Assembly: GCA_043511425.1 (NCBI GenBank)
Contig: CP121331.1
Coordinates: 1,371,233-1,435,232 of the forward strand
Source: Sphingobacteriales bacterium
GTDB lineage: Bacteria > Bacteroidota > Bacteroidia > NS11-12g > UBA9320
Reading direction: 5' to 3'
DNA length: 64,000 bases
Under the pieces are notes generated by a model that made no database searches, was not told where the DNA came from, and saw nothing but the letters and a program-made list of their open reading frames with translations. A program made the position numbers and the translations under genes. Below are positions 13,524 to 53,237 of this stretch, piece by piece (position 1 is the stretch's first letter; the number at the start of each line of letters is the position of its first letter).

Positions 13524-13724
13524 ATGAAAAAAATAAAATCACTAACAGATAGAATCACAAGGCCAGTTTGCTTAACCATAATAGGAATGACTATTATTAT
13601 GGCATTATACACTACTCAGCCTATTGATGAATCTTTATTCATTACTACAGCTCTCGCTAGTGCCATTTACTTGCTGCACTTCGAAGCAAAATCTATAGAT
13701 ACTGAAGAACTGTTCGGTGAATAA
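13524..13724 (+). CDS. Small hydrophobic hypothetical protein (66 aa)
   Basis: ORF only. Confidence 0.2.
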   Translation: MKKIKSLTDRITRPVCLTIIGMTIIMALYTTQPIDESLFITTALASAIYLLHFEAKSIDTEELFGE

Positions 13725-13736
13725 CCACTTTTACGC

Positions 13737-14441
13737 TTGATTAATTACACGTTAGAAGGGAAGGGCTGCAGAAGTGCAGCTCTTCTTTTTTTTTTAATAC
13801 AGACTGAAACATTTAGCAAAAATCACTATCATTACGCCTATAATATGAGAGACTTAAAATTTCCAATTCAACTTACCTTTAATATAGGTACCTTAGCCAA
13901 TGATTTTAAAGCTACAGATTCTGAAGGACACACTGCAGCTTTTGTAAAGCAAAAACTCTTTAAGCTCAAAGAAGACATTAGTATATTCAGTGATGAGACC
14001 AAAACAGAATTACTGTATAAAATAAAGGCGGACAGATGGATAGATTTTTCGGCGGCCTACAGCATAACTCATGCAGATGGAACAGAACTGGGCAAGATAG
14101 CTCGAAAAGGATGGAGATCACTGTGGAAAGCAAAATACTTACTCATTGACCAACACCAGAAAGAGCAGTTTATCATAGAAGAAGAAAATGGCTGGGTGAA
14201 GGTATGGGATAATCTATTGGGAGAAATCCCTGTCCTAGGTTTATTGACGGGCTACTTCTTCCACCCCTCCTACGCAGTAATGAATTTCAACGGAGAGAAA
14301 GTTGCACGACTAAAGAAGCAATCTTCATTTTTTGGTAGAAAATTTGAAATCACAAAACTGACAGATATTGATAATGACGATGACGAACGTGTAATGATTG
14401 GCCTTATGATGATGGTACTGCTTGAACGACGCAGAGGCTAA
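13737..14441 (+). CDS. LURP-one-related (DUF567, tubby-like) family protein; likely start at M 13845
   Basis: Length and sequence pattern of DUF567; weak. Confidence 0.45.
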   Translation: MINYTLEGKGCRSAALLFFLIQTETFSKNHYHYAYNMRDLKFPIQLTFNIGTLANDFKATDSEGHTAAFVKQKLFKLKEDISIFSDETKTELLYKIKADRWIDFSAAYSITHADGTELGKIARKGWRSLWKAKYLLIDQHQKEQFIIEEENGWVKVWDNLLGEIPVLGLLTGYFFHPSYAVMNFNGEKVARLKKQSSFFGRKFEITKLTDIDNDDDERVMIGLMMMVLLERRRG

Positions 14442-47752: not shown

Positions 47753-48502
47753 TCAAGAGGCATCTTTACCTATCACATACCTCATACCAATATACAATCC
47801 AAACCCTGTTCCTTTGGTACTTAATTTTGCGCCTTGCTTTTGCGGATTGGATCCAGCAATGTACTCAATATCAAATTCATTAAGCCGCAAGGAGCTAGAT
47901 CTTGCTGAAAGACTTACATCCACATAGAATTCTTTCCCCACGTGTATTAGCGTGCCCACATCTCCTCTAAACAAGTATCCACTCGGACCGAACCCATTGG
48001 AATACGTAATTACTTCAATCTCATCCGTGACACCAAACTCATCATTACGCACCTCTTCTGTAAAAGTCTGAGAACCCTCCCTTGAAAGACTTTTATTAAC
48101 TATAATATTAAGTCCTCCTTGACCATAAAGAGTCATTACTTTATTCAGCGGGTAACGATATCCAGCAGCCATTGAAAGCTGAGTAGTGGTAAAAGTAGGA
48201 TACAACTGATTACCAAACCCTGTTAGAACTGTACCGTTAGGTTGCACTACGTCTATCTCAAATTTTGCACTATAGTCATTCTTTACTAACCCAACCTCTC
48301 CATAAAATTGCTCATTTATCATCTTACCGACATATATTCCCGCTCCTACATCGAGGTGTGTTTTACCTCTTACATTATCATTTTGAGTCACTGTATATCG
48401 ATCTATTTTAGGCCCTAAATGCACTCGGAAGTAGTCTATGGTCTGGCCATAACTCTGGAGGGATCCACCTAGCAGTAGTATCAGTAAGTATCTTAGAATC
48501 AT
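47753..48502 (-). CDS. Outer-membrane beta-barrel (porin family) protein
   Basis: Signal peptide, amphipathic beta strands. Confidence 0.5.
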   Translation of the reverse strand: MILRYLLILLLGGSLQSYGQTIDYFRVHLGPKIDRYTVTQNDNVRGKTHLDVGAGIYVGKMINEQFYGEVGLVKNDYSAKFEIDVVQPNGTVLTGFGNQLYPTFTTTQLSMAAGYRYPLNKVMTLYGQGGLNIIVNKSLSREGSQTFTEEVRNDEFGVTDEIEVITYSNGFGPSGYLFRGDVGTLIHVGKEFYVDVSLSARSSSLRLNEFDIEYIAGSNPQKQGAKLSTKGTGFGLYIGMRYVIGKDAS

Positions 48503-49092
48503 TTAACTAATTGTTTGTTTTTCAAAGTAAAGGTTTTCCTATGACAGTCCGTGTACCCAAATTTAGCAATAGCCTCTCTATGTTGAGCAGTGCCATATCC
48601 TTTGTGCTGCTGCAGACCATATTCTGGGTAATCAAGAGCTAGCTTTTTCATATAGTCATCTCTGTGTGTCTTGGCTAGAATACTAGCGGCGGCTATGCTT
48701 CTGTACTTCCCGTCTCCCTGTATCACGGTAGTGTGTGGTATGAAATCATAAGGTTTAAATCGATTGCCATCTATGAGCAAATGCTCTGGCCTCACCCTTA
48801 ACTTCTCTATGGCTCTATGCATAGCTAGTATACTACAATTGAGAATATTGTACTTGTCTATCTCCTCTTCTGTACAGCTACCTACGGCCCACGCGATGGC
48901 TTTCTCTTCTATCTGTATACGGAGTCTATCGCGCACCGTTTCGGAAAGTTTCTTACTATCATCTAAAAGCGGAAGTCTCACTCGAGGTGGTAATATTACT
49001 GCAGCAGCATATACAGGGCCAGCTAAACAACCTCTACCTGCTTCATCACATCCTGCTTCGATGAGTCCCTTTCGTAAATAGCCTTTGAGCAT
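48499..49092 (-). CDS. rnhB: Ribonuclease HII (start refined to MLKGYL)
   Basis: AGCDEAGRGCLAGPV catalytic DEAGRG motif. Confidence 0.8.
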   Translation of the reverse strand: MLKGYLRKGLIEAGCDEAGRGCLAGPVYAAAVILPPRVRLPLLDDSKKLSETVRDRLRIQIEEKAIAWAVGSCTEEEIDKYNILNCSILAMHRAIEKLRVRPEHLLIDGNRFKPYDFIPHTTVIQGDGKYRSIAAASILAKTHRDDYMKKLALDYPEYGLQQHKGYGTAQHREAIAKFGYTDCHRKTFTLKNKQLVK

Positions 49093-49274
49093 AGAGCAAA
49101 AATAGTTAGATACACTACAAGCCAATAAAATTTGCAGATACATCGCTGACGGTCTCTTAATCATGCGTAGGGAAACATCACCTTGAATAATGCTGTAAGT
49201 GCCTCTTCTGAACGTATTAAGAAAATACAATCCAATTGTTTAGGTGCCAATTATTAACTTAAAAGTATCTAAGT

Positions 49275-50012
49275 TTGCACGCTGTAATGCTCAAGTATAG
49301 AGAGGCCATATATAATAATTATTTTACCAATCAGGTAAATAAACTAGACAAGGATTATCAAGCTATGCTTTCAGAGCAAGCCAAGCATAACACTGTCGAA
49401 CTCATACACCTTTTACCGTCAGATAAGGAAGCGGTAATTGTAGATCTAGGTTGTGGTTTTGGCACATTTGTAAAACCAGCCATAGATGCAGGTTATACTA
49501 ATGTGACAGGTTATGACATTAGCCAAGAACAAGTAGATGTAGCTCATAAACTTGGCATAAGTACTGTGCACCACAGTAGTATTGATGATTTTTTTGCCCA
49601 AGGTAAAAAGGTAGACGTCATCGTAGGATTAGACATCATAGAGCATTTCACTAAAGATGAACTAATAGACTTCTTACTCAATGTAAAAAAATGCCTGAAC
49701 CCAGGCGGAAAAGCCATCTTCAGGACACCAAACATGGATGCTCCTCAGACGAGTCTCTATGCCTATGGAGACATCAGTCACGAAGTATTTTTAAATAAAA
49801 GTTCCGCTCTCCAAGTAACTAAGGCTATGGGTTTCACAAAAGTAGAAGTCACTGGTGGACTAATACATAATGCAAGGCCACTTTTGGAGCTCATTCGCAC
49901 CATAGGTTGGTGGAAATACAAGACGTTTAAAAAGATAGTGTTGTTCTGCACCGCTCGAACTTGGCACAATGTAGTCTTTGAGCCTAATCTTATAATTGTA
50001 GCGGAGGCTTAG
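49275..50012 (+). CDS. Class I SAM-dependent methyltransferase
   Basis: VDLGCGFGTF motif I. Confidence 0.7.
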   Translation: MHAVMLKYREAIYNNYFTNQVNKLDKDYQAMLSEQAKHNTVELIHLLPSDKEAVIVDLGCGFGTFVKPAIDAGYTNVTGYDISQEQVDVAHKLGISTVHHSSIDDFFAQGKKVDVIVGLDIIEHFTKDELIDFLLNVKKCLNPGGKAIFRTPNMDAPQTSLYAYGDISHEVFLNKSSALQVTKAMGFTKVEVTGGLIHNARPLLELIRTIGWWKYKTFKKIVLFCTARTWHNVVFEPNLIIVAEA

Positions 50013-50115
50013 ACATCATCCCCAAAAAGCGGCTCAGACTCTGAGACTACATACTGACATTATACCGATCAGATGCAGTTCTTCTCCGGAAATGGCATTG
50101 ATGATTACTTCATTT

Positions 50116-51839
50116 TTATTCGAAATCCAAACTAAATCTACTGGCAAAATCCGCTAGAGCAGGATACTCTCGTGCCATTACAGCAAACTGCTCTTTGGGA
50201 GAAAATATTTTATATTCACTTATCTCCGTAGCGTTCACTACACACTCCAAACCGCTGAGGCGATAGCCCGCAGCAGCAAAATGCCTTACCAGCTTGTGCT
50301 TGTCCTCTATTATCTGATTCTCTACTATTTTAGATCCTACGGTGATAGTGATGACATCCTCCGCTACTTTGAGCAGGGGATCTGCAAAAAATGCTGCCAA
50401 ACTTCCACGCTTTTCAGCTACTAAAATATCAGCATACTTCTTAAACATCTCTTTAGCAGAGAGTTCATCTATTCCTTTTAACTTGCTACTCTCTTCTGCT
50501 GATAAAACACCCGTACTATCCGAAATGTCTTTTTTGATGGTCTTACGAGCATTCATAGCACTGCGAAGCCCCCCTATTTTCACAGTTTCTATGGGTTCAT
50601 TTTCCTCGCCCCTTTTCTCTTTTTTGGCAACAATAGGTGACGCTGAGTTCTCAGCAGCCTCGGTGTTTTCTTGAAAAAGATGGGTGAAATATCCTGTGTT
50701 AGCGAGTAGTGCTAGCTTAGGCTTTTTTTTTTAGTCACGTCTATAGCGTGTTGGAGAGAAGCTAGTTTAATAAGAGCCAACTCTATATGCAGACGTTGGT
50801 TTCTGCTAGTCTTATAAGTAGTACCGGTCTCTCCCAGAATATTAATAGCATTCACTATAAATGACGCACTCACTTCCTGTGACTGCTTGTGATATCTGCC
50901 TGCAATTTCCTTAGATTTTTCTAGCAACTGCTGGCTACTCGCATTCTGAGCTACCAGTAAGTCACGCATGTGATTTGCTAAGCCATGCAAGAACAACTCT
51001 CCATCAAATCCCTTCTGTAGTATCTCATTGAATAGTACCAATGCAGCACTTATATCCCCTGCAAGGAACGTATCTACTACTTTAAAAAAGTAGTCATAAT
51101 CTAAAATATTGAGATTATCGATAACCTCTTGGTACGAGATTTTACCTTCCGTACCGAAACTCGCCATTTGATCAAAAATAGACAGAGCGTCTCGCATAGC
51201 CCCGTCAGCTTTCTGTGCTATGAGGTGAAGCGCTTCCTCTTCCGCATCTATTTTCTCGTCTGCAGCTATTCCTTTCAGATGTTCTACGATCTGCGGTATA
51301 GTGATTCTGTCGAAGTTAAACACCTGACAACGAGAGAGTATAGTAGGAAGTATCTTGTGTTTTTCTGTAGTGGCTAGTATAAAAATAGCATACTTTGGTG
51401 GTTCTTCTAATGTTTTCAGAAATGCATTAAATGCAGCCTGAGAGAGCATATGAACCTCATCTATGATATACACCTTATAATCTCCTGTTTGCGGTGGTAT
51501 CCTTACTTGCTCATTTAGCGCTCGGATGTCATCCACAGAGTTATGTGAAGCAGCATCTAGCTCAAAAATATTGAATGAGTAGTCATACCCTTCCGGAACA
51601 GTCCCCTTATTAATTTCTTTGGCTAAAATCCTAGCACACGTAGTTTTACCTACACCTCTAGGTCCACAGAATAGAAACGCTTGGGCTAGGCGATCATTGG
51701 TAATTTCATTGACCAAAGTTTCCGTAATATGCTGTTGTCCGACAACCGTATCAAAGGTCTCCGGACGATACTTTCTTGCACTTACTATAAAACTTCCCAT
51801 TACTGCTGCAAAGAATATATCTCTTACGGTGATAAACAA
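50116..51839 (-). CDS. dnaX: DNA polymerase III subunit gamma/tau; 0-frame terminates after 375 aa just past an A10 tract (T10 at 50723-50732); the frame one A later is open through 50116
   Basis: N-terminal clamp-loader AAA+ (GPRGVGKTT); ORF 50712-51839 ends ...DVTKKKSLS*; with 11 As instead of 10 the reading is TKKKKPKLALLANTGYF...TVKIGGLRSAM, continuous with ORF 50116-50583. Confidence 0.8.
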
Positions 51840-52018
51840 GCAGTGTTGAAAAAGTAATCCTCTTTAACTGTGCACCTTTAATTACCATACCACTATTTCG
51901 ATGTGTAAACGAGCGTGTTCAGCCGTATTTTCTAAGTTTTAAAAAAAACAAGTAGGTATATGATCCGTAAAAAACACAAAAAAGTGAGTTATAGCCTTTG
52001 ATATTACTAGCAAAATAC

Positions 52019-52057: not shown

Positions 52058-52510
52058 ATGGCAAAAACTAATTACGAGTCTGTGGTTGTACTTACACCCG
52101 TGCTTAGCGAAAAGATGATGCAGGAAGCTGTATTATCATTCGAGAAGCTGATCACAGAAAACGGTGGAGAGCTCATCCACAAAGAGAACTGGGGCCTAAC
52201 GAAAATGGCGTACCCTATTCAGAAAAAAACTACAGGTTTCTATCAGATTTTCGAATTTGCTGCTGAACCAGATGCTGAAATTGTAGATAAGCTTGAATTA
52301 GCTTACAGACGAGATGAGCAAGTTCTTAGATACTTATGTATTAAACTTGACAAGCATGCTGTAAAGTACAACGAGAGAAGAAGAAACGGAGAATTCAACA
52401 AGCCTAAGAAAGCGGATGCACCAGCAGCTGCTAAGCCAGTAACTACAGAGAAATCTGCACCAGTAGCTGAAGCAAAGGTTTCACCAGCTAACACAGAGGA
52501 AGAGGAATAA
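52058..52510 (+). CDS. rpsF: 30S ribosomal protein S6 with acidic/Ala-rich C-terminal tail
   Basis: YESVVVLTPVLSE...GGELIHKENWGLTKMAYPI. Confidence 0.85.
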   Translation: MAKTNYESVVVLTPVLSEKMMQEAVLSFEKLITENGGELIHKENWGLTKMAYPIQKKTTGFYQIFEFAAEPDAEIVDKLELAYRRDEQVLRYLCIKLDKHAVKYNERRRNGEFNKPKKADAPAAAKPVTTEKSAPVAEAKVSPANTEEEE

Positions 52511-52514
52511 GATT

Positions 52515-52769
52515 ATGGCTAAAAGAAAAAGATACAAAAGAACGCCCATAGTACGTCCTAAGAAGTACTGTAGATTTAAGAAAAGTGGTATCAAGTATAT
52601 TGATTATAAAAACCCAGATTTCTTAATGCCGTTTATTAATGAGCAAGGAAAACTTCTGCCAAGAAGAATTACTGGTACTTCATTAAAATGCCAAAGAAAA
52701 GTAGCTGTAGCAGTAAAAAGATGTAGACACATAGCTCTACTTCCTTACGTAGCAGATCAGATGAAATAA
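52515..52769 (+). CDS. rpsR: 30S ribosomal protein S18
   Basis: KYCRFKKSGIKYIDYKNPDFL...ITGTS. Confidence 0.85.
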   Translation: MAKRKRYKRTPIVRPKKYCRFKKSGIKYIDYKNPDFLMPFINEQGKLLPRRITGTSLKCQRKVAVAVKRCRHIALLPYVADQMK

Positions 52770-52796
52770 ATAAAACCAACTAATTTTAAAAAATCA

Positions 52797-53237
52797 ATGA
52801 AAGTAATATTAAAAGATTTCGTGAAAGGGTTTGGTGAAAAGAATGACATCGTAGTTGTAAAAAACGGATACGGAAGAAACTACCTTATACCTCAAGGACT
52901 AGCTACTATAGCTACTCCATCTGCTATCAAAATGGCGGAAGAGAATGTAAGACAAGCTGCTCACAAACAAGAAAAATTAAAAGCTGATGCTCAAGCAATA
53001 GCTGATAAATTAGAAGGAATCAAAATCACTGTACCTACGAAAGCAGGTTCTAACGGTAAGATTTTTGGTTCTGTGACTACTATCCAACTAGCAAAGAGCT
53101 TAGCAGATAGAGGATTTGATATAGACAAGCGTAAAATTTCTGCTCCTGATATGAAAAATCTAGGAGATTACAAAGCAAGTGTCGGCCTACACAAGGAGAT
53201 AACTGTAGAAATAGACGTAGAAGTTACTCAAGAGTAA
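52797..53237 (+). CDS. rplI: 50S ribosomal protein L9
   Basis: MKVILKDFVKGFGEKNDIVVVKNGYGRNYLIP. Confidence 0.85.
   Translation: MKVILKDFVKGFGEKNDIVVVKNGYGRNYLIPQGLATIATPSAIKMAEENVRQAAHKQEKLKADAQAIADKLEGIKITVPTKAGSNGKIFGSVTTIQLAKSLADRGFDIDKRKISAPDMKNLGDYKASVGLHKEITVEIDVEVTQE

Follow-up and report, generated by a model that had tools for sequence, protein, structure and literature searches.

A conserved ten-adenine tract in dnaX of a Sphingobacteriales bacterium as a probable programmed slippage site for production of tau

We analysed a 64,000-nucleotide stretch of DNA from a Sphingobacteriales bacterium (GTDB lineage Bacteria; Bacteroidota; Bacteroidia; NS11-12g; UBA9320), comprising positions 1,371,233 to 1,435,232 of the forward strand of contig CP121331.1 in NCBI GenBank assembly GCA_043511425.1, and refer to the whole of it as the window. 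Its dnaX gene, on the minus strand, contains a run of ten adenines (A10) at the gamma/tau boundary, where the frame encoded in the DNA ends shortly past the run and the remainder of tau continues in the -1 frame. We conclude that the run is probably a programmed recoding site, with transcriptional slippage as the main route to tau. An earlier reading of the same letters (the original prediction) had noted an A10 tract within 50700-50740, which we place at 50732..50723, and had left the choice between a programmed site and a homopolymer miscall. The conservation of the A10 and the selection acting on the -1 frame support the programmed site, and the miscall does not survive the comparison with relatives. 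The elements of the gene are the following.

50712..51800, minus strand: dnaX 0-frame open reading frame (ORF), a 362-amino-acid gamma-like product running from ATG 51800-51798 to TAG 50714-50712 and holding clamp-loader domains I-III.
50723..50732, minus strand: A10 slippery tract, the putative recoding site, made up of three AAA lysine codons and the A of AGC.
50712..50714, minus strand: 0-frame TAG that ends the gamma-like product, the third codon past the three lysine codons.
50116..50730, minus strand: -1-frame continuation, the tau-specific C-terminal third, 204 codons plus TAA (50118-50116), entered through the tract only.
50731..50733, minus strand: TAA closing the -1 frame upstream, spanning the T that precedes the tract and the first two A's of the run.
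50717..50719, minus strand: +1-frame TAA (GCC TAA), one codon past the tract, which ends A9- and A12-type products at KKKA.

The likely start codon, judged from the ORF list and from the starts of homologues, is the ATG at 51800-51798. A TTG at 51839, 13 codons 5' of it, opens a 375-amino-acid ORF that had been taken for the clamp-loader core; homologues begin at the ATG (MGS[FY]...), which leaves 362 residues. Counted from this ATG, the first A of the tract is position 1 of codon 357, and codons 357-359 are AAA AAA AAA. Translation confirms that the 0 frame closes the protein as expected, GAC GTG ACT AAA AAA AAA AGC CTA AGC TAG giving DVTKKKSLS and a stop, although this stop is the third codon past the lysine codons; the distance of nine codons originally given counts the tract itself. 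When the tract is read as A11 the product becomes TKKKKPKLALLAN..., 561 amino acids in total, and an A8 reading gives 560. As had been proposed, both readings join the frame of ORF 50116-50583, which is open for about 200 codons, to the TAA at 50118-50116; the junction reads TKKKKPKLALLANTGYF.... An A9 reading ends at KKKA (360 amino acids). The predicted peptides are distinguishable by sequence: DVTKKKKPKLALLANTGYFTHLFQE across the tau junction, DVTKKKSLS at the gamma C-terminus, and DVTKKKA for the A9/A12 product. Because the -1 frame is closed by a TAA directly upstream, the shift must occur inside the tract.

The 0-frame product has the domain composition of a clamp-loader subunit. Pfam families PF13177 (123 bits), PF22608 (57 bits) and PF12169 together cover residues 22-351, and the NCBIfam model TIGR02397 (dnaX_nterm) matches at 391 bits (cutoff 250). 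The AAA+ ATPase domains I-II are recognisable by a P-loop, GPRGVGKT, and an SRC motif, LSRCQ, and domain III, the collar through which the clamp loader oligomerises, by PF12169 at residues 228-351 (44 bits, cutoff 24.4). The tract, at codon 357, begins just past domain III. The tau-specific extension, homologous to that of intact tau proteins, is found in the -1 frame only. A hidden Markov model (HMM) of this region built from the clade described below matches the C-terminal third of every one of the 42 intact, single-ORF DnaX proteins recovered from Bacteroidota, with E values between 1e-16 and 8e-5, and in tblastn searches the fused query, over residues 1-559 to 1-561, is collinear in one frame with single-ORF genes of Pedobacter and Mucilaginibacter. 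The NCBIfam Bacteroidota DnaX model PRK14971 matches the fused protein in two stretches, the second of them C-terminal.

The C-terminal region of characterised tau proteins binds polymerase and helicase, and domain V of Escherichia coli tau binds Pol III alpha. An AlphaFold model of the C-terminal part is confident at residues ~85-200 (predicted local distance difference test, pLDDT, ~90). A MAFFT alignment wrongly paired the linker at the N-terminus of the C-terminal fragment with the AAA+ region of full-length proteins, so that only the C-terminal domain of the model is trustworthy. A Foldseek search returned no significant PDB match, E. coli tau domain V appearing only among the weak matches; a PDB sequence search gave no match, and neither did a Pfam scan of the C-terminal 202 amino acids, in a library that lacked PF28557 (DUF8439). 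In four loci the tau C-terminal part has been called as a separate hypothetical protein of 114-197 amino acids (L081, 3637-4179; L083, 3718-4161; L084, 3892-4236; L111, 2673-3266), and two of these ORFs carry PF28557. DUF8439 thus appears to be the C-terminal domain of Bacteroidota tau.

The comparison proposed for the A10, a survey of close relatives for a run of nine to eleven adenines at the same codon, was made on a clade set of 28 sequences: the window, the loci L081 and L083, and 25 metagenome contigs from independent assemblies. The contigs were fetched by a degenerate DNA pattern for KLASLQHA[IL]DV, which ends before the tract, so that the choice was unbiased with respect to tract length. 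Exactly ten adenines, in the same phase and at the same codon, were present in 28/28 sequences, and also in L084, a 67%-identical relative outside the pattern-selected set. All 25 metagenome contigs, which are marine and include Tara samples, read T-A10-G[CT]CTA[AG]. In the 24 that reach far enough (contig L102 ends a few bases past the tract) the 0 and +1 frames both stop close by, and the -1 frame stays open over 194-209 codons. The base before the tract is T in 28/28, and the upstream -1-frame TAA is thus always present. The 0-frame stop in relatives lies 6-7 codons from the first lysine codon of the tract, despite differing -1-frame residues. In every clade member the +1-frame stop follows one codon past the tract, as GCC or GTC and then TAA or TAG, with L092 reaching it via TCT instead of CCT; the third base of the -1-frame proline codon CCT is thereby fixed as T, which preserves this stop. 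Lysine codons in the tract are AAA in 84/84 cases, against 64% AAA and 36% AAG elsewhere in these genes, and synonymous sites flanking the tract vary freely.

Protein searches gave the same picture. The best ~60-65 homologue clusters of the fused 561-residue query, drawn from NCBI, JGI, ENA, Logan and Tara assemblies at 70-100% identity, are all ~362 amino acids long and cover 64% of the query; they share the MGS... N-terminus, and nearly all end in D[VL][TSAV]KKKSL[SGND] and a stop. The 90%-identity cluster of the window protein holds 24 variants, of which 15 are listed (three of 375 amino acids, from the upstream start, eight others of 362 and four shorter fragments), the most widespread being found on 27, 25 and 13 contigs; no fused tau form is among those listed. 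The DNA of four relatives (87%, 77% and 67% protein identity) likewise has T-A10-G[CT]CT, a near 0-frame stop and an open -1 frame of ~200 codons, together with the same synteny, a divergent rpsF-rpsR-rplI operon lying upstream. This conservation of tract and frames excludes an error or a pseudogene.

Members of the 90%-identity cluster come from Tara Oceans, JGI and other marine samples. One marine metagenome contig (L107; ENA OUOG01000557) differs from the window at 4 of 160 bases around the tract, and its C-terminal part is 97% identical. The window seems, from these matches, to stem from an abundant uncultured marine Bacteroidota population.

The frame downstream of the tract evolves as a coding sequence. 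Translations of the -1 frame from 25 distinct clade members align from the first codon past the tract (KP[KR]LxxLxxSG[YF][FY]xHLF), with a conserved start, a variable linker and then a conserved C-terminal domain of ~110 amino acids, and they contain no frame-breaking indels even at 34-45% identity. Pairwise differences at codon positions 1, 2 and 3 number 23828, 19288 and 34581, a bias already seen in the first 25 codons. These patterns point firmly to purifying selection on the -1 frame at the protein level. The first possible internal start is a GTG at 50583, ~45 conserved codons past the tract. Since conservation begins that far ahead of any possible start, independent initiation cannot explain it; with conservation from the tract itself and no start codon there to use, separate initiation of the downstream ORF is ruled out.

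We then considered the tract across the phylum, using 80 Bacteroidota species loci that were the best tblastn matches listed (40-64% identity) and not a random sample. A run of at least eight A's stood at the gamma/tau boundary in 72/80, and in 63/80 it was exactly A10, in Sphingobacteriales, Flavobacteriales, Cytophagales, Chitinophagales and some Bacteroidales. Cultured-isolate genomes (Flavobacterium, Chryseobacterium) have the same layout as the window dnaX. Relative to the tract, the tau frame among the 72 tract-bearing loci was 0 in 48, -1 in 20 and +1 in 4. Loci with an in-frame tau show the protein motif EKKK at the tract, and 17/20 of the -1-polarity loci have A10. The +1-polarity loci are L015 (~4055), L067 (~4095), L078 (~4093) and L079 (~1514), three with A10 and one, a Flavobacterium, with A9. 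In every case the two non-tau frames close very soon, at a median of 2 codons past the tract; for random positions in these genes the corresponding figure is 9 (Mann-Whitney p = 6e-33). The tract and its frames are conserved, and all three frames are under selection. Given a near-universal A10 whatever the tau frame, and stops selected in both non-tau frames, we lean by a narrow balance towards viewing the A10 tract as a phylum-wide, frame-agnostic slippage device.

Seven loci had no long A run and a plain in-frame tau (L034, L045, L062, L064, L066, L011 and L019). They are mostly Bacteroidaceae and other Bacteroidales of higher G+C content (L034, L045, L062, L064, L066), and L019 (Pontibacter) has A7; the slippage device appears to have been lost in these lineages. 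In L065, a metagenome-assembled genome (MAG) of the Bacteroidales, the 0 frame ends at a TAG past domain III (~2775-2790) with no A tract nearby, which may reflect an error, recoding of another kind or truncation of the gene.

In the mechanism that we propose, the DNA-encoded frame would give the 362-residue gamma-like clamp-loader subunit (domains I-III), and full-length tau (561 residues) would arise only through a -1 shift in message or reading, to the equivalent of A11 or A8. RNA polymerase would stutter on the T10 template and produce a mixture of A9, A10, A11 and A12 messages, each translated normally: A11 and A8 messages would encode tau, A10 messages gamma ending in KKKSLS, and A9 and A12 messages gamma ending in KKKA and KKKKA, respectively. 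Slippage on a run of ten A's would be expected in roughly half of transcripts, so that both subunits may be made in comparable amounts from one gene, and a one-base indel in the DNA could flip the 'standard' product at little cost. We infer both the transcriptional nature of the slip and this product ratio. The tract is kept at 10 A's where a ribosomal heptamer needs 7, and together with the lack of stimulatory elements described next this favours transcription over frameshifting of the E. coli type. Moreover, the +1 polarity and the selection for stops in each alternative frame indicate that all three frames are read, as A9-A12 messages would deliver.

Several points weigh against this account. 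Literature searches found no experimental test of recoding in any Bacteroidota dnaX, and both the heterogeneity of the message and the two products are predictions, for this organism as for any species of the phylum. The phylum loci are the best matches to our query and not a random sample; the four of +1 polarity are MAG or draft assemblies, and L079, like the in-clade contig L110, could reflect homopolymer errors. The tract in the clade is always in phase 0, with an in-phase A_AAA_AAA, at which a -1 ribosomal shift would give an identical tau. Ribosomes also slide on long runs of AAA lysine codons. Part or all of the shift could accordingly be translational.

Alternatively, then, ribosomes would slip -1 on A_AAA_AAA or slide on the poly-lysine run, making tau from an unedited A10 message. 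The heptamer is strictly conserved in the clade, the product could not be told from one translated from an A11 message, a -1 frameshift is made at the matching site of E. coli dnaX, and Atkins et al. 2016 (PMC5009743) describe the reversed cases as 'derived from ribosomal frameshifting'. The expected stimulators are nonetheless missing. The Rfam dnaX element RF00382 had no match in 50000-52000 at E up to 10, giving five sub-threshold chance hits only. RNAalifold on 15 diverse clade sequences found no conserved structure or downstream stem-loop (-2.2 kcal/mol; of 8 predicted pairs, 1 covaries weakly), and the single-sequence fold at the tract is not unusually stable (z = -0.45). The upstream sequence CAACACGCTATAGACGTGACT contains no Shine-Dalgarno (SD)-like, GGAGG-like stimulator, in a phylum that makes little use of SD pairing, and the heptamer A_AAA_AAG is absent from the 0 frame (AAA AAA AAA AGC), A_AAA_AAA being present instead. 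With no Rfam match, structure or SD-like sequence, an E. coli-type frameshift element is ruled out. The tract is kept at ten A's, not seven, and a pure -1 shift would leave unexplained the +1 polarity in four lineages and the selection for stops in each alternative frame. We regard a translational shift as unlikely, though a serious competitor.

A second alternative is that the gene is simply split, a gamma-only subunit being followed by a separately initiated C-terminal protein or by a C-terminal pseudogene. Gene callers do give the downstream part as a separate ORF of 147-197 amino acids, and GTG 50583 could start a 155-residue product. This is very improbable: the ~45 codons between tract and GTG are strongly conserved from the first one, with variation biased to third positions, the -1 frame is shut by TAA just upstream of the tract in every relative, and the two parts are always adjacent and overlap at the tract. 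Purifying selection excludes the pseudogene version. DNA-level phase variation, in which replication slippage would toggle A10 (gamma only) and A11 (tau) genotypes, is likewise very improbable. A10 tracts are mutable in replication, and the polarity flips across the phylum show that tract indels have been fixed over evolutionary time; but characterised replisomes need tau to link polymerase and clamp loader, which makes an off state implausible, and dozens of independent clade population consensuses are all A10, with no A11 consensus seen. Finally, a miscalled homopolymer hiding a genuine A11 and a single intact tau ORF is effectively refuted: homopolymers are error-prone on some sequencing platforms and one in-clade contig has A9, but the same A10 recurs clade-wide and in L084 across many projects and assemblers, ~60 protein clusters are truncated at the same codon with no fused variant listed in the 90%-identity cluster, and the layout is repeated in the cultured Flavobacterium and Chryseobacterium genomes and in a published set. 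The A9 contig just mentioned is L110 (2569-2577), in which the product ends at KKKA and tau lies in the +1 frame; its name points to low-coverage long reads, other genes on it are broken, rpsF among them, and its A9 is probably a sequencing error rather than a real variant.

The programmed slippage that we favour has published precedents. The original prediction had described the polarity of this gene as reversed, which is true of the window but is not new. Antonov et al. 2013 (Nucleic Acids Research (NAR) 41:6514, PMC3711429) reported two-ORF dnaX genes in which the DNA itself carries a -1 shift, 17 genes in 12 genera, A10 being present in nine, and proposed transcriptional realignment for them. 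In Figure S3 of that paper the Thermus A9 site is aligned with the sites of Flavobacterium johnsoniae, F. psychrophilum, Cytophaga hutchinsonii, Capnocytophaga ochracea, several Chlorobi and Coraliomargarita (PMC3711429). Atkins et al. 2016 (NAR 44:7007, PMC5009743) restate the two-ORF dnaX with recoding required for tau. The window dnaX resembles these genes in the gene itself, the site at the end of domain III, the A10, the -1 relation of the ORFs, the 0-frame stop just past the tract and the phylum; it differs in coming from a different, uncultured marine lineage and in its flanks (T-A10-GCCTAAG), and not in principle. By its sequence it would be placed in the two-ORF class on every criterion, and it lacks the elements that define the E. 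coli type. It is a clean new example of a layout already described in 2013, not a new phenomenon. The +1 arrangement and the majority of loci with an in-frame A10 are absent from that description, which could detect only two-ORF, -1 cases. To the literature consulted, the survey of the phylum makes a modest addition: most species have exactly A10, tau occurs in three polarities, and stops are under selection in each of the two alternative frames.

The comparison with Thermus and E. coli drawn in the original prediction agrees with published work. Thermus thermophilus dnaX uses transcriptional slippage on A9, with tau:gamma ~1:1 (Larsen et al. 2000, cited in PMC3711429 and PMC5009743), and in poly-A cassettes tested in E. 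coli the shifted product reaches 40% for a run of 9 A's and 63% for one of 11 (PMC3711429, PMC5009743). Both the Thermus gene and ours have an A run at the gamma/tau boundary, close stops in the non-tau frames, products sharing an N-terminus and presumed slippage. For a run of the Thermus type, at least nine A's with nearby non-tau stops are expected, and the window has A10 (A9 in Thermus), with the 0 and +1 frames stopping 3 and 1 codons past the tract. The polarity is opposite: in Thermus the unslipped message encodes tau and the slipped one gamma, whereas here the unslipped message would encode gamma and tau would need the slip. The Thermus polarity is found in 48/72 tract-bearing Bacteroidota loci among the matches listed. 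The window dnaX would share the mechanism of Thermus but not its polarity.

In E. coli, dnaX undergoes a -1 ribosomal frameshift at A_AAA_AAG (PMC3711429, PMC5009743), aided by an upstream SD-like element and a downstream stem-loop. The gene, the equivalent boundary, the -1 direction and the making of two products from one gene are held in common. The window has neither that heptamer nor the SD-like element, the stem-loop or an Rfam match, its polarity is reversed, and the shifted E. coli ribosome stops after one codon where the shifted reading here runs for 204. In the endosymbionts Buchnera and Blochmannia, errors of the polymerase at poly(A) tracts rescue genes that carry a frameshift (Tamas 2008; Wernegreen 2010; both cited in PMC5009743). 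There too slippage on a long A run, maintained by selection, yields a full-length product although the gene is frameshifted; those, however, are degenerating genes in tiny AT-rich genomes, whereas the window has a conserved two-product design in a free-living lineage, in which both dnaX products are apparently selected.

The surroundings of the gene, conserved with relatives, and one further element near its end are these.

52058-53237, plus strand: rpsF-rpsR-rplI operon, divergent, upstream of dnaX and conserved with relatives.
50033..50045, minus strand: weak terminator-like hairpin with a T-rich tail, ~70 nucleotides past the tau stop.
49275-50012, plus strand: class I methyltransferase, downstream of dnaX, conserved neighbourhood.
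48499-49230, minus strand: RNase HII, downstream of dnaX, conserved neighbourhood.

The hairpin is only suggestive as a terminator, with 1 site found and 1.4 expected in shuffled sequences. A scan for promoters of the sigma-70 type was uninformative, its models not covering Bacteroidota promoters. Only two homopolymers of at least ten bases occur in the window, and the dnaX tract is the sole one within a gene. The other, a T10 on the plus strand at 13786-13795, is the U-tract after a GC-rich hairpin, GCTGCAGAAGTGCAGC (13760-13800), and looks like an intergenic intrinsic terminator following the small ORF 13524-13724. The window is AT-rich, and it contains 7 runs of nine A's where 4.2 are expected, so such runs are not rare by chance; the weight of the dnaX tract comes from its conservation and not from a homopolymer count.

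For annotation, the dnaX in the window is an intact and correctly assembled gene: the downstream 'hypothetical' ORF encodes the C-terminal third of tau, and it should be annotated together with the 0-frame ORF as a single recoded dnaX. Dozens of ~362-amino-acid 'gamma/tau' entries in databases represent the 0-frame part only. The gene opens no new category; it illustrates the published idea that, with slippage near 50%, a one-base indel would swap the 'standard' product. Looking to the phylum, the survey offers a cheap and well-defined system in the cultivable genus Flavobacterium, in which to ask if the slip occurs during transcription and if bacteria outside Proteobacteria need gamma. If the A10 tract is indeed a frame-agnostic device across Bacteroidota, RNA polymerase slippage would routinely feed all three frames of dnaX, a gamma-like subunit would be made phylum-wide, and lineages would drift freely among the three DNA-level polarities.

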